DNA from: Gemmatimonadales bacterium
Lineage (GTDB): Bacteria; Gemmatimonadota; Gemmatimonadetes; Gemmatimonadales; GWC2-71-9
DNA length: 64,000 nt
Direction: 5' to 3'
Assembly (NCBI GenBank): GCA_036555275.1
Contig: DATBLR010000091.1
Coordinates: forward strand, 8,888-72,887
Below, piece by piece: positions 486 through 18,659 of this stretch (position 1 is the first letter of the stretch; every line of letters starts with the position of its first letter). The position numbers and the translations under genes were made by a program. The notes under the pieces were generated by a model. The model ran no database searches. It saw only the letters and a list, made by a program, of their open reading frames with translations, and was not told the DNA's origin.

Positions 486-1991
486 TCAGCCTGTCCTCGC
501 CGATGCGGTAACTGAACTCCGCGGCTCGGGCCGGTGCCGGTTCCCGCCCACGAGGGCCAGCAACCTGTTCCCCAAGGCGTTCAGGTCCTGCGCCGTCCGC
601 TCGGCCTGCCTGGTCGAGGCCAGGTTCTGCTGGGTGGCCTCGTGGATGCTCGCCATAGCCTGGCGGACCTGCGTCATGCCCACGGCCTGCTGCCCAGCCG
701 AGGCAACGATCTGGACCGCCGCCTGTGCGGCTTCCGCCACGGCTTCGGCCAACGCCCGGATTGTCTCACCGGCCTCGGTCACCTGCCGGGTCGTTGCCGT
801 GGCCTGCTTGGTGCCCTGCTCGGTGGTCATGACAGCGGCGCTGGTGGCACGCTGGATCTCCCCCAGGATCCGCCGGACCTCGACCGTCGCCTTCTTCGAC
901 TGCTCGGCCAGGCTCTTCACCTCTCCCGCCACGACGGCAAAGCCGCGTCCCTGCTCCCCGGCGCGCGCCGCCTCCACGGCGGCGTTCAACGCCAGGAGGT
1001 TGGTCTGCTCGGCGATGTCGTTCACCGTCGCGATGATCTCCCCGATCGCCTGGGCCTGCTCGGACAGCGCCAGGATGCTTTCTACGATGGACTCCACCTG
1101 CTCCTTCACGCCCTTCATCGCCGCGGTTGACTCCTGGACCGCCTTGCGGCCGGCCTCGCCGATCTCAGCCGCCCGCTGGGCCGAGTCGGCCACCGCCCTG
1201 GCCCGCTGCGCCGCCTGCTCGGCGGTCTGCGCCACTTCGTCCACCGACGCCACCGTCTGCGCCACCGCGGCCGACGTCTCGCTTGCGCCGGAGGCTTGCT
1301 GCGTCGTGGCCGCCAGGATCTCCGCCGCGCTCGACGCGAGGACCCCGGTCGTTTCGCGGAGCGGGCCGCTCACGGCGCGGTTCAGGAATACTGCCGAGAG
1401 CGTGCCGACCACCAGCGCCAGCAGACCTGCCAGCAGGAGGACCGTCTGCATCCAGGCCGCGGTCGTCTGCGCTGCCGTGGTGGCGGCATCGGTCAGCTGC
1501 TCGGCGCGCGCAATGCCACGCTGGATCGCCGCCCGCACGGCCTCACGGGCCGCAACGGCGCGCGACTCGCGGATGCGCTCCGCCTCGACGCCCCGGCCCG
1601 CCCGCGCTTCCGTCATTGATGCCTGCGACGCTGCGTCCCACTGTGAGACCGCGCCAAGGGCCTCGGCCCATATGGCCCGGCCCTCGGCAGTATAGGCGGA
1701 GTCGCGCAACTGCACGAGCAGCACGTAACTCAAGGCGAGGGTGCTATCACGGCTGCGCAGCTCTGCGTCGTTCGGTCGAGCCAGGAATCCCTGGAAATCC
1801 AGGATGGCGCGGCGGAATTCCGCCTGCGCCGTGAGCGCGGGAACGAGCGTACGCCGCTCCCGATCCAGGGCGGCTCGATAGGTCTCCGACGTCCTTCGCA
1901 GCGCCACGACGCCTACCAGCACCACGACGACCACGAGGCTCAGACCCACCGCGAACCCCGCAACGATCCGGCGACTCACGGTCCACTGCAT
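486..1991 (-). CDS. methyl-accepting chemotaxis protein (2 TM, HAMP, MCP signalling domain)
   Basis: ORF 486..2051. Likely start is MQWTVSRR at 1991, followed by TM helix [20 protein letters not shown], a second TM, and the signalling hairpin tip [34 protein letters not shown]. Confidence 0.9.
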
Positions 1992-2091: not shown

Positions 2092-5055
2092 TCATCCCCG
2101 TTCCGGCTTCGGGGTCCGGCGCCGCGCCTGGGGTGGCAGGCGGTTCAGGACCTCGAGGAGCTCACTCGTGTCCGACTTCGTTACGATCGTGGCGACCTGT
2201 CCCCGAAGTGCCGATTGCTCCGCCTCAGTCAGGTCCTTGAAGGTGAAGATCAGCACGGGGATGTCGCGGGTGGCCGGCTGTGCGTGGAGTCGCTTCAGCA
2301 CTTCGAACCCGCTCATGCCGGGCATGATCAGGTCCAGAACGATCACATCGGGCAGCGCTTCATTGGCCAGCCGAATGGCCGCTTCGCCCTCGTAGGCTCG
2401 GAGGGCCAGGAAGCCACGCCGCTCGAGGGTCTCGGCGAGAAGATCCACCGTCTCATGGTGATCATCCACGACCAGCACCGCCGTGGGGCGGGCTTGAGCG
2501 CGTGGCGGTACTGCCCGGCGCACAGCCGCCACCAGGTCATCACGGCTGACTGGCTTCACCAGCCACTCCGCGGCCCCGAGGCCCACTCCCCGCTCGCGAT
2601 CGTCGGTAATGGAGACGACGACCACCGGGATCTGCTCGGTGTCGGCGACGGCCCGGAGCCTGGCGAGAACCTCCAGCCCGTCCTGGTCGGGGAGGAGGAC
2701 ATCGAGGGTGATTGCCGCCGGCCGGAGCCGCTCCGCCATCTCGACGGCCTGAGCGCCGGTGACCGCGTGCGCCACCGCGTAGCCGTGTTCGCGCAGATAG
2801 TGGGACAGGAGCTCGCCAGCCGCCGGGTCATCCTCGACGACCAGGATCAGCGGTCCCTCCGCCCGATCGACCATCGGAGCCGGTGCGACCGCAGGGGACT
2901 TGCGATATCCCAGCGGCTCCAACGGCAGCGAGAAGGTAAAGGTCGATCCCACTCCTGGACTGCTCTCGACCCAGATCGCTCCACCGTGCAGCTGGACCAG
3001 CCGGCGTGTCAGCGCGAGCCCGAGGCCAGTCCCCGACTCCTCCCGGGAGACCACCGACCCGACCTGCTCGAACTCCAGGAAGATGCGTTCCTGATCCTCC
3101 GCTGCGATCCCGATGCCGGTGTCCGCCACCGAGACCTGGATGCGCCGATCCGCCCCCGACGACGGGTCCGCCGCCACCACGCGGGCCGTGACCCGGATTC
3201 GACCCCCCTCAGGTGTGAACTTGATCGCGTTGCTCAGCAGGTTGTACAGCATTTGCTTGAACTTGGAGCGATCGGCGGTCAACTCGGGCAGGTCGGCGGG
3301 GGTCTCCACCTGCACGGTCAGGCGCTTGCCGATCGCGAGAGACTCGACCAGCTGCTGCACCTCGCCAATGGCCTGGGCTGGAGGGAACGCGACGAGCTCC
3401 AGAGTCAGGCGCCCCGCCTCGACTTTCGCAAGATCCAGGATGTCGTTCACGAGCTGCAGCAGGTGGCGCCCGCTGGCGAGGATGTTTCCCACGTACCTGA
3501 CCTGCTTGTCGTTGAGGCCCCCGAACGTCCGGTCTTCCAGCAGCTCAGAGAATCCGATGATGGCGTTCAGCGGCGTCCGGAGTTCGTGACTCATGTTGGC
3601 GAGGAACTGCGATTTCGCGCGGTTGGCCGCCTCCGCCATCTGCCGGGCCCGCTGCTCCTCGGCCGCCCGCCGGTTCGCCGACAGGTCGGAGTAGACGGCA
3701 ACCAGGCCCGAGATCTTCCCGGCGGAATCGTGCAGCGGCGCGGTCGAGATGGCCACCTCGATCAAGGAGCCGTCCTTCCGCCGCCGGATGGTCTCGACCC
3801 CGCCGAGCTCTTCCCCCCGCATCATGCGGTCGTGCAGCTCCTGGGATTCCGCGATCCGGTCGCTCGGGATGTTCATCAGCTCCTGACCGACTACCTCCGC
3901 GCGGCTCCATCCGAACATTCGTTCGGCCCCGCCGTACCAGCTCACCACCCGACCATCGCCGTCGAAGCCGACGATGGCCTGCGGCGAGGCCTCCACCAGG
4001 GCACTCAGCTCATCGTGGGCCCGCCGCAGCGCCTCGCCCGCTTCCTTCCGTTCGGTGATGTCCAGGCAGGAGCCGATGAAGCCCAGGAACTCTCCGTCGG
4101 CCGACGACCGGGGCACTCCGGTCTCGATCATCCACCGGTACACGCCGTCCCGCCGCCTGAGTCGGTACTCGACGGTGTACGGCAGGCGCGACTCGTGGCT
4201 CGCATCGTACTGCTCGAGACAGGGACGGAGATCGTCAGGGTGGATCACCTCCTGCCAGCCGTGCCCCAACTCCTGTTCCCGCGTGCGGCCGGTAAACTCG
4301 AGCCACCCCTGATTGAAGTAGGTCACCATCCGGTCGGGGCCCGACATCCAGATCAGGACCGGCGCCGAGTTCGCCAAGGTGCGGAAGCGGGCCTCGCTCT
4401 CGCGAAGGCTCCGTTCGGCTGTACGCAGCTCGAGGTTCTGCTGGCGGAGTGACTCCTCCGCCTGCTGTAACTGCCCAATGGTCTGCCGCAGATCCTCGGT
4501 GCGTGCCTGGACCCGTGATTCCAGCTCTGCCTGCAGTTGCCTCAACTCCTGGTTCTTGAGCACCGCATCCTCGAAGCTGGAGATCAGCAGGTCGAGGATC
4601 TGTTCCCGCTCGGAGCCGATCGTGAACGTCGAGCCGAGGAAGGTGACCGAGACCCGCATCTGGGTCTTGGCCCTGCGGCGCAGCTCCAGGTTCTGGAGCA
4701 CGTTCCGGATCCGGGCCAGCAGATGCTCGCGCTCGTAGGGTTTGGTGATGTAGTTGTCGGCGCCGGCGGCCAGACCGCGCACGATGTCCATGGGGTCGTT
4801 GAGGCTGGTGAGGAGCAGGACCGGGACCTGGGCCGAGCCGGCCTCCGCCTTGATCCGGCGGCACACCTCATACCCATCGATCCCCGGCATGGTGATGTCG
4901 CTGATCACCAGGTCAAAGGCACTGTCGTGCATCAGAGCCAGCGCCTGCTCGCCGTTCGGCGCCACCGTGGCGTCGTATCCGCTTTCCTGCAGCAGCAGCG
5001 AAAGCGCCTCCGCCTGGGTCCGGCTGTCCTCGACGATGAGAATCTTCACGGGCAT
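2092..5055 (-). CDS. hybrid sensor histidine kinase: REC - coiled coil - PAS - PAS - HisKA - HATPase - REC - REC
   Basis: 987 aa. N-terminal receiver (KILIVEDS...[14 protein letters not shown]...ITKP), H-box [12 protein letters not shown]-boxes DTGIGI and GTGLGLAL, two C-terminal receivers. Start overlaps the cheB stop by 10 nt. Confidence 0.9.
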
Positions 5056-6092
5056 CGTTTCCCCCCGCCGATCAGATTCATGAGATGCCAGCCGATTTCG
5101 GTGACCGGTAGCTGGGTATCCACCACGCCGGCGTCCATCGCGGCCCGGGCCATGCCGTACACGACGGATGACGCCTCATCCTGACCCAGCACCTTCGCCC
5201 CGGCCTCTTTGGCAGAGCGCAGCCCATCCACTCCGTCCGCTCCCATGCCGGTCATGATGACGGCGAGCATCCGTGAGCCGTAGGCCCGGGCGGCGGACTG
5301 GAACAGATAGGTCGCGGACGGCCGAAAGCCGCCGATGGCCGGCTCGCTGCCGAGGTGAATCCGGCCGTCGCGGCTCACGCCGAGATGGCGCTCATCGGGC
5401 GCCAGGTAGACGGTGCGCGGGGAGAGGACTTCCTGCTGTTCGGCGACCTTGACCCGGAGATCGCAATTGGAATCGAGCCAGGTGGCGAGGCCGCCGATGA
5501 ATCCGGCGGCCATGTGCTGGACCACGAGCACCGGCACTGGAAAGGAACCGTCGAGGTCCGCCAGCACGCGATGCAGCGCGGCCGGGCCGCCCGTGGAGGT
5601 GGCCACGGCTACCAGCTCGATCGCTCCCGCCTGCGGCGCCAGCCGACCGGGCCTGGCCGGTGTCGGCGCCAGGGACCGCCAGCGTCGGACGAGCTTGACC
5701 TGCGCCATGGCCTTGACCATCGCCAGCAAGCGCTCCCGATGACCGTTGAAGAGCTCGGAGTCGGGGCTCTCCGGTTTGCGGACCACGGCCAGCGCCCCGG
5801 CCCGCATGGCATTGAGGGAGAGTTCGACATCGCGGCCGCTGGCACTCGACGACACAATGACGATCGGGGTCGGCGCCAGGACCATGATCTCCTTGGTCGC
5901 CTCGAAGCCATCCTGCAGCGGCATGTGCACGTCCATGGTAACCAGATCCGGCTTGAGCCGGACGGTCATCTCGACGACCTCGAGGCCGTCCTTGGCCTCA
6001 CCGATCACCTGGATTTCCGGATCGCTCTGCAGCACCCCGACCAGGAGTGTCCTGACCGTGAGCGAATCCTCCGCCACGACGACCCGAATCAT
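5046..6092 (-). CDS. cheB: chemotaxis response regulator protein-glutamate methylesterase CheB (REC + methylesterase)
   Basis: ORF 5046..6269. Likely start is MIRVVVAEDS at 6092, which overlaps the cheA stop by 4 nt. Motifs STGGP, VVQHM, MTGMGADG. Confidence 0.9.
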   Translation of the reverse strand: MIRVVVAEDSLTVRTLLVGVLQSDPEIQVIGEAKDGLEVVEMTVRLKPDLVTMDVHMPLQDGFEATKEIMVLAPTPIVIVSSSASGRDVELSLNAMRAGALAVVRKPESPDSELFNGHRERLLAMVKAMAQVKLVRRWRSLAPTPARPGRLAPQAGAIELVAVATSTGGPAALHRVLADLDGSFPVPVLVVQHMAAGFIGGLATWLDSNCDLRVKVAEQQEVLSPRTVYLAPDERHLGVSRDGRIHLGSEPAIGGFRPSATYLFQSAARAYGSRMLAVIMTGMGADGVDGLRSAKEAGAKVLGQDEASSVVYGMARAAMDAGVVDTQLPVTEIGWHLMNLIGGGKRCP

Positions 6093-8272
6093 GTGCCGAG
6101 CAGCTGGCGCACCACATCCAGCAGCTGCTGCTGGTCGAAGCTCGACTTTCCCAGGTACGCGTCCGCGCCGACCTCGAGCCCGCGGGCCCGGTGCTCGGTC
6201 GACTCCAGGGCGGTGACCAGGACCAGGGGAAGTCGCCGGAATCGCGTCGACGCGCGGATGGCCGCACACAGGCCGAAGCCGTCCATCCGGGGCATGTCAA
6301 CGTCGGCGACGACCAGATCCGCGCCACGCTCCTGGAGTTGCCGCCACGCGTCAGCTCCGTCGACGGCCGTGTCCACCTCGTAACCGGCCGCCTGCAGCAC
6401 GCTCTGCTCCAGGGCGCGGGTAGTGATGGAATCGTCCACGACGAGGAGCCGCCGCCGGGTCGGCGTGCCCTCCGCAGCCTCCGAGCTGACCCCAAGGCGG
6501 CCGCCCAGCCCGAGACCCGCGTCGACCACCGCCGCCGGGTCGAGCACCAGCGCCACCTCGCCGGTCCCGAGTAGCGCGGCGCCACTCAGATTCGGCGACG
6601 GTCTGTCCTTTCGCCCAACCGGCCGGACGACGACCTCCTGTTCGGCCCGGAGCTCGTCCACCACCAGTGCCAACCGGCGCTCGCCGCTTCGCACCACGAC
6701 CATCGGGAGGATGCCGGCCGTCGGGCGCTCCTGAAACGGCGGGCCGAGCACTTTTGCCAGGGAGGCCAGGGGTACCGGCCCTTCGGGAGTGGTCAGCACA
6801 TCGCGGCCTTCGGCGTTGTGCAGGCTCGCCGGATTCACCCGGCACAGCCGATCCACAGCCGACGTCGGAATAGCCAGCGTCTGCGGCCCGAGGCCAACCA
6901 GGACCACGCGAATCGTCGCGAGACTGGGAGGGGCCTCGATGGTGAAGCGAGTGCCGCGTCCCGCCTCCCACGCGACCGCGACGCGACCCCGGATCCGTCC
7001 AACCGCCGCGCGCACCGCATCCAGTCCCACCCCCCGCCCCGAGACGACGGTCGGGGCGCTGCGGGTGGAGAACCCACCGCGGAAGAGAGCGTCGCCCAAT
7101 TCCCGATCGGTACCAGGCACCGGCGCGCCGGCCGCGCGCATTCGCTCGCAAAGGGCGTCAGCTCTCATTCCGGCGCCGTCATCAGCCACGCTTACGACGA
7201 TCCGGTCACCGCTGAGCGCCGCCTCGACCATGATCTCTCCCATCGCGGGCTTCCCTGCAGCCTGCCGCTCGGCAGCAGTCTCGATTCCGTGGTCAACGGC
7301 GTTCCGGACCAGGTGGAGCAGGGCGTCGCGGAGACCGTCGAGCACGGCGCGATCGGCCTCCACCTCCCCGCCCCGGATGACCAGCCGCGCCTCCTTGCCG
7401 AGGCTCGTTGCGAGGTCGCGAACCGTGCGGGGCAACACTTGGCACGCTTCCGCGAAGGGCCGGAGCCGGAGCCGGCGGGCCCGGTCGGCGACGTCGTCCG
7501 TTACCCGGGCAAGGCTGCGGGTGTCCTGCAGCGCGAGCGCAGCGAGGCGGCGGCTCTCCTGGATCAGGTGCTCGGCGTGAGCCGACACCAACTCCAGGGA
7601 ACGGACCAAGGCCGGCGAATGATCCAGGGCGAGGCGCAATTGCCGGCTGGTCCGCTTCCAGGTCAGCGCCCAGGTGACGGCGTATTCATGCAGCGACTGG
7701 AGCTCGACCGGATGCTGGGCAAGCCGCTCCTCGAGCATCGGAATCTGCCCAGCGGCGGCGAGGAGGCCGTCGAGTTTGTCGGCCTCGACCCGCACGTGTC
7801 CGTCACTCCGCTCAATGACCGGCGGGGGGACGGATGCGGCGGCCTCCGCGGCAGGGGGGGGCCGCCTGCCAGTGGTGGCGCCTGCCTCCAGGGTTTGCAG
7901 CGCCTTCCGAAGCTCCGCCGGCACCGCCTCCCCGGCTTCCGCTCCGGCCTTGAGCCGATTGCCAACCGCCGTCAGCGCATCCGCGGCTCTGAAGAGCACG
8001 CCGAACTGTTCGTGGCCCAGGGTGCGCCGGCCACTCCGCACCTCGGCGAGGGCAGCCTCCAGCGCATGACACACCTCCTCCACGGAGTCGACTCGCGCGG
8101 CGCGGGCGGCCCCCTTGAGGGAGTGAACCACCCGAAACAGCGAGCGCAACCGCTCAACGTCTGCCGGGGCGGTCTCCAGGGCCAGCAGGTCGGCATTCAT
8201 GATCCGCACCTGCTCGTCCAGCTCGCTGGCGAAGGTCACCAGCAGGCGACGCGCCATCTGGTCGCGGTCCAT
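6089..8272 (-). CDS. cheA: CheA-type histidine kinase with C-terminal receiver (Hpt-dimerisation-HATPase-CheW-REC)
   Basis: 727 aa. Hpt HSLKGAARAARV, N-box HLVRNAVDHGIE, DDGAGM, GRGVGLDAV, CheW-like domain, C-terminal REC (LLVVDDS...VVADVDMPRMDG). Confidence 0.92.
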   Translation of the reverse strand: MDRDQMARRLLVTFASELDEQVRIMNADLLALETAPADVERLRSLFRVVHSLKGAARAARVDSVEEVCHALEAALAEVRSGRRTLGHEQFGVLFRAADALTAVGNRLKAGAEAGEAVPAELRKALQTLEAGATTGRRPPPAAEAAASVPPPVIERSDGHVRVEADKLDGLLAAAGQIPMLEERLAQHPVELQSLHEYAVTWALTWKRTSRQLRLALDHSPALVRSLELVSAHAEHLIQESRRLAALALQDTRSLARVTDDVADRARRLRLRPFAEACQVLPRTVRDLATSLGKEARLVIRGGEVEADRAVLDGLRDALLHLVRNAVDHGIETAAERQAAGKPAMGEIMVEAALSGDRIVVSVADDGAGMRADALCERMRAAGAPVPGTDRELGDALFRGGFSTRSAPTVVSGRGVGLDAVRAAVGRIRGRVAVAWEAGRGTRFTIEAPPSLATIRVVLVGLGPQTLAIPTSAVDRLCRVNPASLHNAEGRDVLTTPEGPVPLASLAKVLGPPFQERPTAGILPMVVVRSGERRLALVVDELRAEQEVVVRPVGRKDRPSPNLSGAALLGTGEVALVLDPAAVVDAGLGLGGRLGVSSEAAEGTPTRRRLLVVDDSITTRALEQSVLQAAGYEVDTAVDGADAWRQLQERGADLVVADVDMPRMDGFGLCAAIRASTRFRRLPLVLVTALESTEHRARGLEVGADAYLGKSSFDQQQLLDVVRQLLGT

Positions 8273-8814
8273 CAGTCCCTGGACCTCGCGCCGTCTCCCG
8301 TCGCCGGACTCTGCTGGACCAGCGCCAGCAACCGGCGTCCCAGCCGATCCAGGTCCTGGGCCGCGCGCTCCGCCTGCCGGGTCGAGGCCAGGTTCTGCTG
8401 GGTCGCTTCGTGGATGTTGGCCATCGCCTGACGGATCTGGCTCATCCCCACGGTCTGCTGGCCCGCCGAGGCCACGATCTGGGCGGCCGCCTGGGCGGCC
8501 TCACCCACCGCATCGCGCACCTGCCTGGCAACGGTCCCCACCTGCTTGGTCCCCTCCTCGGTGGTCATCACCGCCGCCCCCGTCGCCCGCTGGATCTCGC
8601 CGAGGATCCGACGGACCTCCACGGTGGCGCGCTTCGACTGCTCCGCGAGGCCCTTCACCTCGGCGGTCTGCGCCACTTCGTCCACCGTGGCCACTGTCTC
8701 CGTGACCGCGGCCGATGTTTCGGTGGCCCCCGACGCCTGCTGGGTCGTCGCGGCCAGGATCTGGCTCGCGCTGCTCGCCAGCACCGTCGCCGTTTCCTGC
8801 AGCGGACGGCTCAC
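8272..8814 (-). CDS. MCP-derived protein lacking TM/HAMP and the signalling hairpin tip (intact ORF; possibly a pseudogene)
   Basis: 180 aa, colinear and highly similar to residues ~228-505 of the MCP at 486..1991. An exact in-frame gap removes ~99 aa (QAAQRARAV...RGFAVVAGE). The junction reads VDEVAQTAE|VKGLAEQSK. Its stop overlaps the cheA ATG by 1 nt. Confidence 0.6.
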   Translation of the reverse strand: MSRPLQETATVLASSASQILAATTQQASGATETSAAVTETVATVDEVAQTAEVKGLAEQSKRATVEVRRILGEIQRATGAAVMTTEEGTKQVGTVARQVRDAVGEAAQAAAQIVASAGQQTVGMSQIRQAMANIHEATQQNLASTRQAERAAQDLDRLGRRLLALVQQSPATGDGARSRD

Positions 8815-8910
8815 GCCCCGACGGCCGCAATCTTGTGGGAGATGACCAATCTCATTGCTCGACCTCCAGTTCAGTCCGTCCCGGCAGCTGTCCCGGCCTC
8901 CCGGGCCTCG

Positions 8911-9411
8911 TCACACAACATCCGCCCACTCGCGAAGCAAGGCCTTGGCGTCCAGCAGCAGCATCGCCTCACTGGTCATGCCCCGGAGATAGGGACGCGC
9001 CATCGTCCGGCCCTCGGGAAGGGGATGGATACTCGAGAGCGGGACCGAGGCCAGGACCTGGACCGCGTTCACCAGCAGGCCGAAGGCCGCCCGAGCTTCG
9101 CCCAGCACCAGCACCTGGTTCAGATCGTCGAGAGCCGCGACCGATAGCCCGAGTACCCGCCGGAGGTCGAGCACCGTCAGCAATTCTCCCCGCCAGCCGG
9201 TTACACCGTGAAGGGGGGGCTCGGCCCCGGGCAGCGCCGAGAGGTGGAGGAGCGGCGAGACCGCAACGACGTAGCGGGCTTCGATGGCATAGAGCTCCCC
9301 GGCGAGCGTGAACGCGATGACCTCCAGCGCGGCTCCGGCGGGCTGCTGCTTGAGGGGCCGGGCCAGGTGCCGGGCCCGTTCCTCAAGCAACAGAAGGGGG
9401 TCCGCGGCCAT
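8911..9411 (-). CDS. cheW: CheW-like coupling protein
   Basis: ORF 8911..9570. Likely start is MAADPLLLLEE at 9411, 17 nt after the cheR stop. CheW fold pattern: VIAFTLAGELYAIEARYV...GVTGWRGELLTVLDLR. Confidence 0.85.
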   Translation of the reverse strand: MAADPLLLLEERARHLARPLKQQPAGAALEVIAFTLAGELYAIEARYVVAVSPLLHLSALPGAEPPLHGVTGWRGELLTVLDLRRVLGLSVAALDDLNQVLVLGEARAAFGLLVNAVQVLASVPLSSIHPLPEGRTMARPYLRGMTSEAMLLLDAKALLREWADVV

Positions 9412-9428: not shown

Positions 9429-10874
9429 TCACGCGATTGCCGATCGAGCGAGCTGTGCCTGGGCTCGCGCCAGGGTCGCCAAGCGGCTTGCGGGTTCGCC
9501 ATCGGACGCAGGCACGATCGCCGACTCCGGCAGCGCGGCGAGCCGGCGCTCCGCATTGGTGAAGGCGCACTCCGCCCCCGCGACATCACCCAGCCGGAGC
9601 AGCGCCGACCCGAGGAGCAGGTGGACCACGGCGAGGGTGGGGTCGAGATAGAGGGCGCGGCGGGCCGCGGCGGCGGCTTCGGCGTAGAGTCTCGCCTCGC
9701 TCAGCAGAAGAGCATGGAGATAGACCAGCTCAGCCACGAGCGGATGCCGATCCAGGGCCATTGCGCATGCCCGCCCCGCTTCGGCGAGGGCCCCGCGGTT
9801 CGCATGCGCGCGGACCAGCAGGATCCAGAGGGCGGCATCGTCCGGACTCCCGCGGAGCCAGCGTTCGAGGCAAAGCACGGCCCCCTCGTAATCGCGGGCG
9901 GCATACCGAACCAGCGCCTCGGGTTCGGTATCGGCGATAACCGCCGGAGGCTCCTGGACCGTCGGCGGCACCGGAATGGGCGCTACGGGATGGGCCGGTT
10001 CCATCGGTCTGGGGCGAGGGTTCGCAAACCTTGGCGGAACCGGTCCGCCACCCGGGCGGACCCGTCGGTACGCCAGCCCGGCCGGGGTAGTCAGCACCTC
10101 GCACTGGGCCAACCGAGCGATCGGTGGATCCGCCGCACCCAGCAGGAGCCAGCCCCGATCGCTCAGCGAATCAATCAGCCGCCGGGCGACCCGGGCCGCG
10201 GTGTCGGCATCGAAGTAGATCAGGACATTGCGACAGAGGATGAGGTCCATCTCTCCGATCCCGCTCGCCGGGGAAGGATAGATGTCCTCGGCCAGGTTCA
10301 GGTAGCGGAACTCCACCGCCTCACGCACCGCTGGCACCGGTTCCCATTTGCCCTGAATCCGCTGGAAGTACGCCTCAACCACATCGGGCGGGACCCCTCG
10401 GAACGACCATTGGCCGTACCGGGCGCGGCGCGCGGCCGCCAAGGCTGGTCGCGCGAGATCGGTTCCGAGGATCCTCGCTCCGCCGAGCCGGCCGAGCTGA
10501 GCCAGCTGAATGGCGAGGCTGAAGGGCTCTTCCCCGGTCGCGCAGCCGGCGCTCCAGATACGGAGCCCGCCCTCACATCCGACGAACCCGGGGAGGATCT
10601 CGTCGCGGATCAATGCCAATTGCGCCGAGTCCCGAAAGAAGTAGGTCTCCCCGACCGCCACCTCCGCGATGAGGGCCTGGAGCAGCGGCGCCTCGTTGGC
10701 GAGTCGAGCAGGGAACTCTTCGGGATCCATCCGGCCGGCGCAAAGCATGGTTCGTGCAATGCCCGCCTCGAGCGCCGCCTGGCGGGACTCACTGGCAACG
10801 AGCCCAGTCCGGCGACGGAGCACTTCACTGGCCGCGGCGACGATGGCCGCCGGCAGGGGCGCCGGCCGGCTCAT
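9429..10874 (-). CDS. cheR: chemotaxis protein methyltransferase CheR with C-terminal TPR domain
   Basis: 481 aa. ETYFFRD, RIWSAGCATGEEPFSLAI, LILCRNVLIYFD, then a TPR-like helical C-terminus. Confidence 0.9.
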   Translation of the reverse strand: MSRPAPLPAAIVAAASEVLRRRTGLVASESRQAALEAGIARTMLCAGRMDPEEFPARLANEAPLLQALIAEVAVGETYFFRDSAQLALIRDEILPGFVGCEGGLRIWSAGCATGEEPFSLAIQLAQLGRLGGARILGTDLARPALAAARRARYGQWSFRGVPPDVVEAYFQRIQGKWEPVPAVREAVEFRYLNLAEDIYPSPASGIGEMDLILCRNVLIYFDADTAARVARRLIDSLSDRGWLLLGAADPPIARLAQCEVLTTPAGLAYRRVRPGGGPVPPRFANPRPRPMEPAHPVAPIPVPPTVQEPPAVIADTEPEALVRYAARDYEGAVLCLERWLRGSPDDAALWILLVRAHANRGALAEAGRACAMALDRHPLVAELVYLHALLLSEARLYAEAAAAARRALYLDPTLAVVHLLLGSALLRLGDVAGAECAFTNAERRLAALPESAIVPASDGEPASRLATLARAQAQLARSAIA

Positions 10875-11362
10875 CTGGTCGGACCCGATGCGGCAGCAAG
10901 GACTTCGCCCCGCATGGCCACGCTCAGTAGCTGGTCGATCTCCAGCCGTTCCTCGATCGAGAGGAATTGATCAAGGTCGTGGATGATCAGGACTCCGTCT
11001 GGCAGTGTGGCGATTCCCGAAGCGTACTGCACGCCCGGAACCACGTCGGCAACCTTCCGGATGACTTCGGGAGCCACCGTCAGGAGGTCAAGCGCACGGT
11101 CGACTCGGAGCGCCACGGGGCCACCGAGCGTGTCGGCGAGCATGAGGTGTTGGTCTGGTTGCAGGGGCGCGGCGGGCAGACCGAATCGCAGTCGGAGGTC
11201 GAGGACGGGCGTCACGGTACCGCCGACATTGATGACCCCTTCGAGGACTGCCGGTGCTCCAGGGAGCGGAGAGATCGCAACCGCCCGCACGATCCGGTTG
11301 ACCGAGCGCGCGTTGACGGCCAGGCACCACCCCCCAATCTCGAAGACAAGCAGGGATACCAC
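10871..11362 (-). CDS. cheW: CheW-like coupling protein
   Basis: 163 aa. LLVFEIGGWCLAVNARSV...GVINVGGTVTPVLDLRLRFGL. Stop overlaps the cheR start by 4 nt. Confidence 0.88.
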   Translation of the reverse strand: MVSLLVFEIGGWCLAVNARSVNRIVRAVAISPLPGAPAVLEGVINVGGTVTPVLDLRLRFGLPAAPLQPDQHLMLADTLGGPVALRVDRALDLLTVAPEVIRKVADVVPGVQYASGIATLPDGVLIIHDLDQFLSIEERLEIDQLLSVAMRGEVLAAASGPTR

Positions 11363-12398: not shown

Positions 12399-13511
12399 CT
12401 AGGCCGTCACCGAGCCGGGCCCGCGGAACTCGACCGGGTCGGCATGCTCACTGTGATCGGCGACGAAGGTCAGGGTCTGCCGCCGGCCCACGACCGCGCC
12501 GAGTGCATCAACGACCTTCGGGTCCAGAATGGTGCCGCGGAGTTCCTTCATGCGCTCGACAGCGGCTTCGGGACCCAGCTGCTCCTGGTAGGGCCGGGCG
12601 CTGGTGAGGGCATCGTACACTTCGGCGGCCCCAAGCAGGCGGGCTCCCCAGGGGATTTCCATGCCGGCCGTGCCATCCGGGTAGCCGCCGCCATCCCAGC
12701 GCTCATGGTGGTGGCGGACGAAGCGCACCAGCTCCTCGCACCCGGGGAGCGGGGCGAGGATTTCGGAGCCGATGGCGCTGTGCTTCTTCACCTGCTCAAA
12801 CTCCTCGGGGAGGAGCCGTCCCCGCTTTTTCAGGATAGCGGAGGGGACCGCGATCATGCCGAGGTCGTGGAGCTGGCCGGCCCGGCGGACCAGCTCCACT
12901 TCCTCATCGCTCCGGCCGAGCTGCGCGGCCATGGAGGCGGCGAATTCGGCAACCCTGACCGAGTGGCCGGTGAGATAGGGATCACCCGCCTCTTGCACGG
13001 TGACCAGCGCGCCGAGGGCTCCGAGAGCCAGGCGCTCCAGGTTCGCCTGCTCCAACCGCACCTCGGCGCTCCGCTTGGCGAGCTCCTCCCGCAGATAATG
13101 GGCGGTGTCGTACTCTTCCATCCGCCGTTGCCGTTCCCGGGCAGCCCGCTGCAGCGCCCGCTCGAGCGAGTCGAGCTGGAGCGGTTTGACGAGGTAGTCC
13201 ATGGCGCCCCGCTGCAGACAGACCGTAGCGTTCACCGCCTCGGTCTGGCCGGAGAGCATGATGATGGCGAGGTTCCTATCGAGGTGGGTGGCCTCCTGGA
13301 CGAGATCCATCCCGCTCATGCCGGGGAGGTTCACATCGAACAGCGCAAAGCTGAAGGGCTGGCCCTCCAGCGCCTTGAGCGCGTCCTCCCCACTCTGGGC
13401 GGTGACCACCTCGAAATCGAGGCGCGCGAGGAACTGCCGCAGCGCGTCGCGCATCTCAGCATCGTCGTCCACCACCAGGATGCGATTGGTTCCCGCCTCA
13501 GCCCGTACCAT
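12399..13511 (-). CDS. response regulator with HD-GYP domain (putative c-di-GMP phosphodiesterase)
   Basis: 370 aa. REC (RILVVDDD...ALFDVNLPGMSG...VKP) plus HD-GYP (LHDLGMI, HHERWDGGGYP). Confidence 0.9.
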   Translation of the reverse strand: MVRAEAGTNRILVVDDDAEMRDALRQFLARLDFEVVTAQSGEDALKALEGQPFSFALFDVNLPGMSGMDLVQEATHLDRNLAIIMLSGQTEAVNATVCLQRGAMDYLVKPLQLDSLERALQRAARERQRRMEEYDTAHYLREELAKRSAEVRLEQANLERLALGALGALVTVQEAGDPYLTGHSVRVAEFAASMAAQLGRSDEEVELVRRAGQLHDLGMIAVPSAILKKRGRLLPEEFEQVKKHSAIGSEILAPLPGCEELVRFVRHHHERWDGGGYPDGTAGMEIPWGARLLGAAEVYDALTSARPYQEQLGPEAAVERMKELRGTILDPKVVDALGAVVGRRQTLTFVADHSEHADPVEFRGPGSVTA

Positions 13512-14601: not shown

Positions 14602-14968
14602 GCGTCAGGTATCGAGCGACTTCGGTCGGAAAGGTTCGCGTATTGATCGGTTTGGTGATATACCCGATACACCCTGCGGAGCGCGCCGCCTCCTCGTCTC
14701 CTTTCATCGCCTGCGCGGTGAGCGCCACGACCGGGATCGCCGCGGTCCGGGGATCGGCGCGAAGGCGCCGCAATGCTTCCAGTCCGCTCATATCGGGCAA
14801 TCGGATATCGAGGAGGACCAGATCCGGCAAGTGTTCCCCCGCCATCCGCAGCCCTTCCGTGGCGGTGGTCGCCTCGAGGACCGTCAGCCCTGCCGTACGC
14901 AACACATCCGACGCCAGCTCCAGATTCATCGGATGATCCTCGACCACCAGCACCATGGCACTGGTCAC
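14567..14968 (-). CDS. single-domain CheY-like response regulator
   Basis: 133 aa. VLVVEDHPMN...LVLLDIRLPDMSG...ITKP. Start overlaps the stop of the upstream hybrid kinase by 4 nt. Confidence 0.9.
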   Translation of the reverse strand: MTSAMVLVVEDHPMNLELASDVLRTAGLTVLEATTATEGLRMAGEHLPDLVLLDIRLPDMSGLEALRRLRADPRTAAIPVVALTAQAMKGDEEAARSAGCIGYITKPINTRTFPTEVARYLTREGPERGGITR

Positions 14969-17412
14969 GCGGGTTCGCTCCCTTCGGAAACGGCGTCGGG
15001 CGCGCGACGGCGGGAGGGGATCCGCTCGATGGCGTCGAGCAGGGTCACCGTGTCCGACTTGGAGACGATCCGGCGCACCCGCCCGCTCAGTGCCTCGCGC
15101 TCGTCCGCAGCCAGCTCCTTGAACGTGAAGACTATGACCGGAATGCCCCGAGTTGCCTCCTGCTCCTGGAGCCGGCGGGCGACCTCGAACCCGGAGAGAC
15201 CCGGCATGACGAGATCGAGCACCACGACATCGGGAAGCTGCTCGGTTGCGAGGCGGATCCCCTCGGCCCCGCCGTAAGCGCGCAAGGCTCGGAAGCCGCG
15301 GCGCTCGAGGGTATCCGCGAGCAGGTCGACGGTCTCCCGGTGGTCGTCAATAACCAGGATGGTGCGCTCCCCGCCGTTCGATGTCGCCGGTACTGCCCGG
15401 GACACCGCATCGAGGAGCCGCTCCCGGTTGACCGGCTTGACCAGCCAGTCCGAGGCCCCGAGGCTGAACCCAAGCGCCCGGTCGTCGGTAATCGATACGA
15501 CGATCACCGGAATCCGCTCGGTGTCCGCCAATGCCCGGAGCCGGGACAGGACCTCGAGGCCATCCTGATCCGGCAGGAGGATGTCCAGGGTGATCGCGAC
15601 CGGCTTGAGCCGGCGGGCCATCTCAAGCGCCTGCTCGGCGTTCGCGGCCTGGGCGACGGCGTAGCCCTGGCTTGTCAGATAGTGGCAGAGTAGTTCGCCG
15701 GCCACCGGATCATCCTCGACCACCAGCACGACCGGCTTGCCGTCCTCCCCGGGCAGGGCCGCTGCTCCTGCTCCAGCCCGGCCGGGTGTCAGCACGCTGG
15801 GCGGAACCCGCGGCAGGAAGATGGAGAACGTAGAGCCCCTCCCGACGGTGCTTTCCAGGCCGATCCTTCCGCCGTGCAGATCGACCAGCCGGCGGGTGAG
15901 AGCGAGGCCGAGTCCGGTACCCTGCTGCTCCCTGACGTAGGAAGCGTCGAGCTGCTCGAATTCCAGGAAGATCCGGTTCTGGTCTTCCGGCCGGATGCCG
16001 ATACCGCTGTCTTCCACCTCGATGGCCAGCCAGTCTTCCGCCTCCCCCGGGGCGCTGGGGTCAGGGACCGTCCGGGCTCGCACCTGCACCAGCCCACCGT
16101 CGTGGGTGAACTTGATCGCGTTGCTGAGCAGGTTGTAGAGGATTTGCTTGAACTTGGCCCGATCCGCGGTGATGATCGGCAACGCGGCCGGCGAGCTCAC
16201 CTCCAGGCGCAGCCGCTTCCCCATCGCCAGTGACTCAACAATGCGCTGCACCTCACGGATCGCGGCGACGGGTTCGAAGCTGCTGGGCTCGAGAGTCAGG
16301 CGTCCAGCCTCGATCCTGGCGAGATCGAGAATGTCGTTGACCAGATCGAGAAGGTGTCGGCCGCTGGTCACAATGTTCCCCACGTAGCGCCGCTGCCGGT
16401 CGTTCAGGGGACCGGAGCTCAGGTCCTCCAGGAGCTCCGAGAAGCCGATGATGGCGTTGAGCGGAGTCCGAAGCTCGTGGCTCATGTTGGCGAGAAACTG
16501 TGACTTGGCGCGGCTGGCCGCTTCCGCCATTTCGCGGCCGCGCCCCTCTTCCTCCGCACGTCGGCGCTCGCTGATGTCAGCGTAGACCACGACGGCCCCG
16601 ATCACCGCGCCGCCGGAATCATGTAGCGGAGCGGACCAGAGGCTCACATCGACCCGCGAGCCGTCCTTGCGACGACGGGTTGTCATGAAATCGGTGATCA
16701 CCTCTCCACCCAGGGCGCGACGGCGCAGGTCGCTGTCCTCCTCGGTCAGGTCGGCGGGAACGTTGGGCAGCTCCCCCCCGACGACCTCGGCCGCCGTCCA
16801 GCCGAACATGCGCTCAGCGCTGGCGGGCCAGCTGGTAACGCGGCAGGTCAGGTCGATACTCACGATCGCCTGCGGCGACGCCGCCACGATAGTGCGGAGC
16901 TCGTCATGCGCTCGCCGCAGCGCCTCGAGCGCCGAGGTCAGGGCGTCCGGGCTGGTCCGCGCCGCCTTGAGGCGCACGTACTCGGTGACCTCCTCCAGCC
17001 GGTGAATGATGTAGGCAACCTTCTTCCCCCGGCCGAATACCGGAAAGTTGACCGGGCTCCACCAGCGCTCCTCGAAGCCGCCTCCCTCGGCCTCGGGCCG
17101 GCGAATGTCATACTTCTGCACCGCCATCGCATCGGGCCGCCGGTGCGTGAGAACCCGCTGGAGCGAGGCCCGGAGATTCCCGACTCCGGTGCCGGCGATC
17201 TCGTCGGGATTGTCGGGGAAGACCTCGAAGATGCCGCGGCCCACAATGGCCTCCCGGCGGGTCATCGTCGCCCGGAGGTAGGCGTCGCTCACGGCGATGA
17301 TGGTGAAGTCGGGCGCGAGCACCAGGTAGTGCCCCGGAACCGCCTCAAACAGCGCCCGGAAGTCCGCTGGGGGCAGCCTCGATCGGCGGGTGGCGGGACC
17401 GCGGCGCTTCAT
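14965..17412 (-). CDS. hybrid sensor histidine kinase: PAS - PAS - HisKA - HATPase - REC - REC (paralog of 2092..5055)
   Basis: ORF 14965..17556. Likely start is [10 protein letters not shown] at 17412, 8 nt after the upstream stop. H-box [25 protein letters not shown], two receivers. Long near-identical stretches with the kinase at 2092..5055. Confidence 0.9.
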
Positions 17413-17420
17413 TCCCTTCC

Positions 17421-18659
17421 TCAGCGCCTTTCGCCGGCATCGACATCCTTCAGATGGCGCGGCAGGGGAAGTCTGATGAAGGCGGCCACCAGCCGAGGAT
17501 CGAAGTGGCGGCCACTCAGCCCGCAGATCTCGGCGGTGACACGCTCCAGTGACCACGGGGGGCGGTAGGGACGGGCGTGCGTCAGGGCATCAAAATAGTC
17601 GGCGATGGTGACCAGCCGGGCCTCGATTGGAATGTCATCGGCCGCCAAGCCATCCGGATAGCCTTCTCCATCCCAGCGCTCATGGTGACTCCGGGCAATC
17701 CGCTCCGCCATTCGGATCAGGTCAGTCTGCCCGCCAGCCAGAATCTGGGCCCCGATGGTGGTGTGAGTCCGCATGACCGTGAACTCCGCTTCCGTCAACC
17801 GAGCGGGCTTGAGCAAGATCTGGTCGGGGATCCCGATCTTGCCCACGTCATGGAGGGGTGCCGCGCGGCGGATCAGATTCGCCCCATTCTCCTCGATGCC
17901 GACTGCGCGGGCCAGCGCCTCGGAAAGGGCCGCCACGCGCTGAGTGTGGCGTCCGGTGTCGTCATCGCGGAATTCCGCCGCGCTCGCCAGACGCTCCAGG
18001 ACCTCCAGTTGGGACTCGTCCAGTTGGCGGGTCCGGGCTAGAACCATCCCTTCCAGCTGCCGGTTCTGCTCCTTGAGCTCCAGATGCAAGAACCGGGTTT
18101 CCAGCAGATTGCCGATCCGGAGCAGAACCTCCACCCCGTCGAACGGCTTGAGCAGGAAATCCCGTGCCCCTCCTGCCAATGCCTGCTGCCGGACTTCGGT
18201 GCGGCTGTCGCCAGTCAGCATGATGACCGGAAGGTGATTGTCCGCGGCCAGTTCCTCGCGAAGGGCATGGAGCACACCAAACCCGTCGAGGCCCGGCATG
18301 TGGAGGTCGAGCAGAATCGCGTCCGGTCGAAACTCGCGAAACACCGCCAGCGCCTGCCGCGAATCCGCCGTGCAGTTGACCGCGCGGTAGCCCGCGTTGC
18401 CGAAAATGCCCTCCAGCAACTGGAGGTTGAGATCTTCGTCGTCTATGACGAGGATCCGCGCCTCGGGATGGCGCGCCGCTGCAGCCTGTCGATAAACTGA
18501 GAGCGCCGGGGCCCCCGGGGCACTCCGCTTCCGTTCGGACCTGCCGTCGGATCGTGGCGCCGCCGATCGCATCTCCTGCTCGCTGATTCTCATATCTGCT
18601 CCGCCCGACCCTTCGCCAGGGCTACGACTTGGCGACCGGACCGAGGTCGGTACTGTCAA
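17421..18659 (-). CDS. response regulator with HD-GYP domain (paralog of 12399..13511)
   Basis: 412 aa. REC (ILVIDDEDLN...ILLDLHMPGLDG...LKP) plus HD-GYP (LHDVGKI, HHERWDGEGYP). Start uncertain (18659 or MRISEQ at 18593). Confidence 0.88.
   Translation of the reverse strand: MTVPTSVRSPSRSPGEGSGGADMRISEQEMRSAAPRSDGRSERKRSAPGAPALSVYRQAAAARHPEARILVIDDEDLNLQLLEGIFGNAGYRAVNCTADSRQALAVFREFRPDAILLDLHMPGLDGFGVLHALREELAADNHLPVIMLTGDSRTEVRQQALAGGARDFLLKPFDGVEVLLRIGNLLETRFLHLELKEQNRQLEGMVLARTRQLDESQLEVLERLASAAEFRDDDTGRHTQRVAALSEALARAVGIEENGANLIRRAAPLHDVGKIGIPDQILLKPARLTEAEFTVMRTHTTIGAQILAGGQTDLIRMAERIARSHHERWDGEGYPDGLAADDIPIEARLVTIADYFDALTHARPYRPPWSLERVTAEICGLSGRHFDPRLVAAFIRLPLPRHLKDVDAGERR

Follow-up and report, generated by a model that had tools for sequence, protein, structure and literature searches.

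A tipless chemoreceptor derivative under purifying selection between cheW and cheA in a Wsp/Frz-like operon of a Gemmatimonadales bacterium

The subject of this analysis is an open reading frame (ORF) of 180 codons at positions 8272-8814, minus strand, of a 64,000-nucleotide stretch of DNA from an uncultured Gemmatimonadales bacterium (contig DATBLR010000091.1, positions 8,888 to 72,887; hereafter the window), where it lies between the genes for CheW2 and CheA in a chemosensory operon. Judged by alignment and gene order, this fragment is the remainder of a gene for a methyl-accepting chemotaxis protein (MCP) that ancestrally stood between CheW2 and CheA, and codon comparisons indicate that it is under purifying selection. 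We lean toward the view that it is a translated and functional MCP derivative that has lost its tip and consists of the adaptation region only.

Alignment of the fragment to the cytoplasmic domain of the full-length receptor encoded at 486-1991 of the window yielded three colinear blocks. BLASTP against that MCP (486-2051) returned two colinear high-scoring segment pairs (E values of 6e-47 and 5e-19), in which fragment residues 1-50 correspond to MCP 227-276 at 78% identity and residues 52-166 to MCP 377-501 at 72% identity with one gap. The gapped alignment contains deletions of 99 and 10 amino acids (aa), the larger of which spans MCP 278-376 and includes the conserved tip motif at 362. Hairpin-tip columns that are at least 90% conserved in a 50-sequence alignment are missing from the fragment, the tip lying wholly inside the deleted 99 aa (or 89 aa, when counted against the parental receptor type described below). 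The 180-codon body is free of internal stops and frameshifts, and the last base of its stop is the first of the cheA ATG (TGATG), an overlap that had been predicted originally. Its first residue corresponds to the residue immediately following the second transmembrane (TM) segment of the paralog, and the ORF includes no input module (sensor or TM). Homology extends two to three codons 5' of the GTG (RRGVSRPLQ vs. NRAVSGPLR), slightly farther than the one or two codons first reported. An input module is not obligatory for MCPs, and soluble MCPs exist. A Pfam scan of the full window MCP detected no HAMP domain, so that, of the TM and HAMP regions which the original prediction listed as missing, only the former was lost. 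That prediction had recommended looking for Glu/Gln methylation-site pairs; the methylation consensus [ASTG][ASTG]xx[EQ][EQ]xx[ASTG][ASTG] is matched once, by a motif identical to that of the paralog, and the native partner of the methylation helix (residues ~123-166) is kept.

DNA identity between the fragment and the window MCP is 75-78%, with synonymous sites near saturation; at this divergence the two are old paralogs, and their initial description as near-identical in stretches of DNA and protein was overstated. The DNA strings quoted in its support are indeed found in both genes, GCCAGGTTCTGCTGGGT at positions 619 and 8387 and TCGTGGATG at positions 640 and 8408. The anatomy of the ORF is as follows.

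8272..8814, minus strand: 180-codon derivative, without tip and TM, of the B-type MCP that the operon originally had (GTG start at 8814, TGA stop at 8274-8272)
8662..8814, minus strand: residues 1-51, membrane-proximal descending (methylation) helix, equivalent by alignment to MCP 227-277
8725-8754, minus strand: residues 21-30, the sole methylation-consensus match, within the descending helix
8661..8662, minus strand: junction of the in-frame tip deletion, AQTA|EVKG, with GAG microhomology only
8518..8661, minus strand: residues 52-99, the ascending-helix segment natively following the tip, with the strongest relaxation of constraint
8548-8562, minus strand: residues 85-89, predicted new hairpin turn TEEGT at the glycine hinge (AlphaFold2)
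8317..8517, minus strand: residues 100-166, membrane-proximal ascending helix, common to the ortholog L085

Related operons have one or two full MCPs at the same position, a comparison that the original prediction had proposed. A full MCP lies between CheW2 and CheA in contigs L083, L089, L092-L095, L099-L101, and L116, the last being the closest CheA relative (62% identity), and tandem MCP pairs fill this slot in L087, L088, L090, and L091. Alignment splits the receptors into an A type of 494 aa, which includes the full MCP of the window, and a B type of ~474 aa, which has paired gaps of ~10 aa relative to the A type, one in each arm. The ascending-arm gap is common to the fragment and to the B-type proteins L087_1, L088_2, L091_1, P0127, and P0001, and because full-length B-type MCPs share it, the 10-aa gap of the fragment is a subfamily trait and not additional damage. 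Since the B type also has the descending-arm gap, the tip deletion amounts to 89 aa when measured against the fragment's own parent type. Thus, the ~99 aa and ~10 aa reported as missing in the original prediction are both present as gaps relative to the window paralog, while the former shrinks to 89 aa against the B-type parent and the latter is an ancestral B-type trait instead of a further lesion.

A second trace of the ancestral gene, overlooked in the original prediction, lies immediately upstream:

8811..8855, minus strand: relic leader ORF MRLVISHKIAAVGA followed by a stop, 14 codons left from the N-terminus of the ancestral MCP, in a different frame from the 180-codon ORF
8863..8867, minus strand: GGAGG, Shine-Dalgarno (SD)-like, 7 nt upstream of the leader ATG (read from the sequence)

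This GGAGG and the ATG at 8855 follow CheW2 where the MCP of relatives starts, ~35 nt farther from the CheW2 stop. The leader resembles the MCP N-terminus MRWTVSRRIAAGFA, and an equal or higher position-specific scoring matrix score was obtained by only 19 of the 104,332 14-mers in the window. Leader and body being in different frames, the 5' deletion must have shifted the frame, and the present GTG start is of secondary origin. Two deletions can thus be read from the alignment, a frameshifting one that removed TM1, the periplasmic domain, and TM2, and an in-frame one of 89 aa that removed the distal descending helix together with the CheA/CheW-binding tip. Relative to the ancestral gene the frame is disrupted, the ancestral ATG being followed by 14 codons and a stop (8811-8855). 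Of the earlier suggestion of a recombination-generated pseudogene, the deletion origin is borne out by the full MCPs of relatives, while the term pseudogene is not supported by the substitution patterns described below and would hold only if the deletions were recent. An attempt to date the 5' deletion by the decay of the leader was abandoned, the functional relative L089 (MRWSIAGK…) showing that the N-terminal motif can vary. A 35-nt identical run across the junction was likewise dismissed as a sign of gene conversion, as runs of 20-32 nt are common among all family pairs.

The locus is present well beyond a single assembly. The window CheA is 100% identical to a protein in JGI metagenomes and has cluster mates at ≥90% identity on dozens of contigs. 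Nine contigs reached via CheA (L107-L115), from independent JGI and Logan assemblies of differing samples and assemblers, are 99.7-100% identical to the window over an interval of 648 bases that runs from the stop of CheW2 to the start of cheA; only two single-nucleotide polymorphisms (SNPs) occur in this interval, and the ORF is identical in L109-L115. Samples containing the locus include JGI 3300035445, 3300032368, 3300036847, 3300038469, and 3300038549, as well as SRR18077947 and SRR12952508. The sides of the deletion junction share just 3 nt (GAG), too little for a k-mer collapse to have produced it. The proposal in the original prediction that two similar MCP genes were collapsed or joined into a chimera during assembly draws on the tandem, similar MCP paralogs found at the same position in relatives and on the contig of one relative (L081) which breaks exactly at the corresponding codon. 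It is contradicted by the recurrence of the same structure in at least nine assemblies from different samples and pipelines (JGI, Logan), by the 3-nt microhomology, by the 22-25% DNA divergence of the fragment from the only other MCP in the window, and by lineage-specific residues in common with L085, and we regard it as practically eliminated. As to L081 (NCBI metagenome-assembled genome contig JACOVF010000113), its position 1 is the codon of VKSLAEQ… that matches the deletion junction, which could be mere chance, or else the assembly graph may have broken there because that population has a similar structural variant.

The best CheA match in the GTDB-representative collection is 54% identical. 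The protein collection searched contained no exact copy of the 180-aa product, whether with V or with M as its first residue, and none of the 170-aa version. A metagenome scan with CheW2 as query found nothing, and one with the fragment as query recovered only full-length MCPs and no tipless ortholog.

The only clear ortholog of the fragment is L085, an ENA contig of 566 nt (ERZ27286489, k141_9470877) encoding P0180, which shares the lineage-specific QQTVGMSQ and DLD.LGRRLLALVQ and the TGATG junction with cheA. Over 71 codons the fragment and L085 differ by a dN (non-synonymous divergence) of 0.039 and a dS (synonymous divergence) of 0.54, giving a dN/dS of 0.07; the original prediction had called for this calculation, and the value is far from the near 1 expected of a neutrally evolving pseudogene. 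Differences were polarized over ~67 codons with 15 outgroup sequences. Synonymous and non-synonymous changes number 11 and 0 on the terminal branch of the window lineage (binomial p = 4e-7), 9 and 4 on that of L085 (p = 0.0015), and 17.5 and 11.5 on the shared stem. A likelihood ratio test under a two-ratio codon model rejected omega = 1 for the clade of the fragment and L085 (2dL = 133), a result of which only the direction was used, the omegas being approximate as synonymous sites are near saturation and maximum-likelihood branch lengths stand at their bounds. Taken together, these comparisons argue that the fragment is under purifying selection and that long-term neutral evolution is rejected.

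Constraint is distributed unevenly along the ORF. Three-point estimates gave an omega of 0.20 for the fragment lineage compared to 0.08 for full-length relatives, with the following values by segment (three-point estimates throughout).

Residues 1-51: fragment 0.21, full-length relatives 0.09
Residues 52-99: fragment 0.27, full-length relatives 0.036 (~seven-fold relaxation)
Residues 100-166: fragment 0.145, full-length relatives 0.096

In residues 52-99 the fragment has 5 lineage-unique replacements, against 0-2 in each of 14 relatives. Relaxation of the segment beside the lost tip, with the membrane-proximal helices held tight, would be an unlikely pattern for a gene that had been dead since the deletion. 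Near the predicted turn the lineage-unique changes are S79G, Q87E, and A/T93G, which we note without leaning on them.

AlphaFold2, run on a 50-sequence alignment, predicted helices at residues 2-84 and 90-168 joined by TEEGT (mean pLDDT 82), the turn falling at the glycine-hinge glycine of the native ascending helix. By simple arithmetic, the predicted arms place residues 1-51 against ~123-170, which deviates by no more than about two residues from the way the methylation helices pair natively, while in the distal half of the hairpin two stretches of the former ascending helix would be newly paired. In the model the helix with the methylation consensus is paired with its retained partner helix, as in an MCP adaptation region. 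The best PDB matches to the model found by Foldseek are MCP cytoplasmic domains, with weak E-values (≥0.02). Such weak values are usual for coiled coils.

These features suggest how the fragment might work. It is probably translated. GTGA (leader TGA overlapping the fragment GTG) and TGATG (fragment TGA overlapping the cheA ATG) flank the ORF, and GGAGG precedes the leader. Ribosomes would load at the strong SD-like site and ATG of the relic leader, stop at its TGA, and reinitiate at the overlapping GTG; alternatively, they may initiate at the internal GTG at 8784, which has AGGA upstream. Gene callers are themselves split between GTG 8814 (180 aa) and GTG 8784 (170 aa), with calls on at least 9 contigs. 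After 180 codons translation would end at the cheA ATG, yielding what is predicted to be a soluble hairpin of two helices that retains the native pairing of the methylation helices and, being tipless, would be unable to bind CheA or CheW. The receptor function is presumably supplied by the full-length paralog encoded last in the operon. The hairpin could act only through its adaptation region, by which it may pair with that of the full-length receptor or form pairs of its own, and/or it may serve CheR-TPR and CheB as a substrate or dock, in the manner of a methylation sink or modulator. A sink for the methylation enzymes and heterodimerization with the receptor seem about equally likely as sub-mechanisms. 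The soluble decoy with methylation-helix segments put forward among the three alternatives of the original prediction, which might titrate CheR/CheB, is compatible with this picture, given the selection, the kept motif, and the predicted hairpin, and is the best supported of the three.

A number of observations weigh against a functional product. The GTG start has no well-spaced SD sequence of its own. Homology searches with the fragment return thousands of MCP matches; its Pfam PF00015 (MCPsignal) score of 20.1 bits is below the gathering cut-off of 34.6, and on this score and the absence of the tip the fragment is an MCP-derived protein not filed as an MCP. The comparator L085 spans only fragment residues ~92-180, is differently truncated, and does not display the tip junction, while upstream of the homology it has an in-frame stop and unrelated sequence; it could be a disrupted copy or a chimera, and hence a weak comparator. 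The AQTA|EVKG junction was not found in any other genome, and the evidence base is one species plus one short ortholog. To this may be added the near-saturation that confines the codon model to a statement of direction. Within populations the ORF shows 0 synonymous and 2 non-synonymous SNPs (A81G and A111T), but CheR, CheW2, CheA, and CheB show the same excess of non-synonymous SNPs, and because these neighboring genes are functional the polymorphisms are uninformative either way. Finally, were both deletions younger than ~9% of the terminal branch, the fragment would owe its low dN/dS to a full-length ancestor that was functional.

That last condition is what would be required if the fragment were a recently inactivated relic without function, made redundant once the paralog at 486-1991 took over and then struck by two recent deletions. 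All that canonical MCP function requires (sensor, TM, and tip) is gone, the 5' deletion put the body out of frame with the ancestral start, and a full MCP occupies the slot in relatives, among them L116 with the closest CheA. The locus also visibly tends to duplicate, delete, and rearrange its MCP genes (L081, L082, L085, and L105). Moreover, with 45 one-step paths to a stop, such an ORF survives a neutral divergence of 0.02-0.05 with probability 0.5-0.7. On the other hand, the last 67 codons have gathered 0 non-synonymous vs. 11 synonymous changes since the lineages of the window and L085 parted, which confines any neutral phase to less than ~9% of the branch, the 5 lineage-unique replacements in residues 52-99 take time, and all known members of the clade of the fragment and L085 are truncated. 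Searches of two protein collections, one of 5.8 billion clusters at 90% identity and one of 1.84 billion cluster representatives, returned no full-length protein belonging to this clade. We consider a fresh relic less likely, though plausible. A different possibility is that only the open frame matters, as a conduit for translational coupling to cheA, and that the peptide is irrelevant. The TGATG overlap with cheA and the GTGA overlap with the SD-bearing leader fit this proposal, as do the survival of the old MCP 3' end beside cheA in both the window and L085 and the weak SD-like signal (AGGG/GAGG) that is all that precedes cheA. Selection for an open frame alone predicts a dN/dS near 1 without stops, however, and not the observed 0 and 11 changes or the 0.07 relative to L085, and a far shorter spacer would serve coupling equally, which makes this proposal quite improbable in our estimation. 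A translated, functional, adaptation-region-only derivative therefore remains the reading toward which we incline.

Comparison with full-length receptors illustrates what was retained. The B-type MCPs L087_1, L088_2, L091_1, and P0127 (in L086) resemble the fragment in their CheW2-MCP-CheA slot, their ascending-arm gap, and the region of the methylation motif, and identity to the fragment in the C-terminal arm reaches about 70% for P0127 and 80% for the partial B-type protein P0001. They differ from it in length (404-475 aa vs. 180 aa), in having the invariant tip, and in the starting codon. L087_1, L088_2, and L091_1 (470-475 aa) have TM1, a periplasmic domain, and TM2, whereas the N-terminal region of P0127 is different. 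The cytoplasmic domains of Tsr/Tar and Thermotoga maritima MCPs (PDB 1qu7, 3zx6, 2ch7, and 3g67), which are the best structural matches, are antiparallel two-helix hairpins, as is predicted for the fragment, which in contrast to them has no kinase-control tip and is predicted to have arms of ~85 residues each, as against ~140. In the literature, searches turned up MCP pseudogenes and experimentally truncated receptors, and no described tipless in-operon MCP paralog. A functional analogy is offered by FrzB of Myxococcus xanthus, a divergent CheW without the CheA-binding region that has nevertheless been shown experimentally to modulate Frz arrays (PMC6952110); the likeness is limited to function, as FrzB belongs to the CheW family, while the fragment is MCP-derived. 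The CheR of the Frz pathway, FrzF, bears TPR repeats (PMC2535941), and the CheR of the window operon also has a C-terminal TPR region.

A second tipless MCP derivative of independent origin, of 216 aa (P0023, P0392, and P0393), is present in three assemblies (of which L082 and L117 were fetched) from another lineage of Gemmatimonadota, where it lies between CheW2 and a full 474-aa MCP that is followed by CheA. It is an intact ORF with ATGA (4-nt) overlaps and no Pfam match on record, and it keeps TM1 and part of TM2, having neither a periplasmic domain nor a tip. Its identity to the neighboring MCP is 65%, and its dS to every full-length relative is 0.7-1.5. As in the fragment, the slot is that following CheW2 and the tip has been lost; in contrast to the fragment, the junctions are different, TM1 is kept, and the arms are shortened roughly symmetrically. 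From these two cases we conclude that tipless derivatives arose at least twice at this operon position and persisted. A broader proposition, that Wsp/Frz-like operons of Gemmatimonadota repeatedly evolved selected adaptation-region-only MCP derivatives as soluble or membrane-tethered modulators, a receptor-side counterpart of FrzB, is possible and offered tentatively. Such derivatives might act by heterodimerizing with the full receptor or by buffering CheR-TPR and CheB.

If the fragment is functional, it would be a natural experiment in which the adaptation (methylation) module of a chemoreceptor has been parted from the module that controls the kinase. It would then provide a handle on how CheR-TPR and CheB recognize receptors in non-flagellar chemosensory pathways and on whether decoys of receptor origin are used to tune them. 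Should it be a fresh relic, a duplicated gene has been lost in the ordinary way, and the fragment serves mainly as a warning for annotation, in which callers report a hypothetical 170- or 180-aa protein without a Pfam match.

The operon in which the fragment resides comprises CheA-REC, two CheW, CheR-TPR, CheB, and a dedicated MCP, each component having been confirmed by Pfam domains, and by gene content it is of the Wsp/Frz-like (alternative-cellular-function) type. From its first gene onward it is composed as follows, with the fragment, its leader, and the SD-like site falling between CheW2 and cheA.

10871..11362, minus strand: CheW1, first gene of the cluster (Pfam)
9429..10874, minus strand: CheR methyltransferase with a C-terminal TPR region (Pfam)
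8911..9411, minus strand: CheW2, directly upstream of the fragment (Pfam)
6089..8272, minus strand: cheA-REC (Hpt, HATPase_c, CheW-like, and receiver; Pfam), its ATG overlapping the fragment stop
5046..6092, minus strand: CheB (REC and methylesterase; Pfam)
2092..5055, minus strand: hybrid REC-PAS-PAS-HisKA-HATPase-REC kinase (Pfam)
486..1991, minus strand: full-length A-type MCP paralog of 501 aa with an intact tip, following the hybrid kinase; presumed working receptor

No terminator-like sites beyond those expected by chance were found between the operon genes, and the gene order is shared with more than 15 related contigs. Whereas the output protein of Wsp is REC-GGDEF, the window operon has a hybrid REC-PAS histidine kinase. 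A full MCP as the last gene of the operon, after the hybrid kinase, was seen in this species only, other genes occupying that position in L093, L099, L100, and L116, which implies, from gene order, relocation or duplication of an A-type receptor.

Several further observations concern the receptors of relatives. The gaps of the B type were seen in L087 (5380-6777), L088 (4284-5687), L091 (1-774), and L090 (4578-5975), and ten residues is not a multiple of seven. The descending-arm gap of L090_2 lies ~8 residues nearer to the tip, suggesting separate events. Tandem MCPs of one genome group with each other and not by type (L081, 1-384 and 416-1900; also L088 and L090), and the dS between P0001 and the adjacent m81 is 0.29, as compared to 0.7-0.9 to other genomes; both patterns suggest concerted evolution or gene conversion between neighboring tandem MCPs.

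Irregular structures were also encountered in several contigs. In L083 (6967-10609, on a contig of 407 kb) the MCP and CheA are split by frameshifts, which may be long-read errors, the contig name being a bare number unlike those given by short-read assemblers, and in L105 (3-724) the MCP C-terminus is out of frame. At positions 1-246 of L085 there is a partial opposite-strand ORF (MLTQLRGGRPPVYATISKGWVTTQ…) without a Pfam match, and the sequence upstream of the homology in this contig could mark an insertion or rearrangement breakpoint or a chimeric contig. P0030 (JGI contig of 1061 nt) and P0042 (ENA contig of 903 nt) both end in the C-terminus of an MCP ascending arm, joined to a foreign N-terminus that is sigma-70 region-2-like (PF04542) in P0030 and bears no relation to MCPs in P0042; these may be chimeric assemblies or additional rearranged MCP remnants. 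A gene of the phage-integrase family lies just upstream of the che operon in L116 (2782-3405). In the window itself, the neighborhood upstream of the che cluster is rich in signaling genes, with a REC-HD-GYP-type (HD_5) response regulator at 12399-13511 and a second hybrid PAS histidine kinase at 14965-17556, both on the minus strand.

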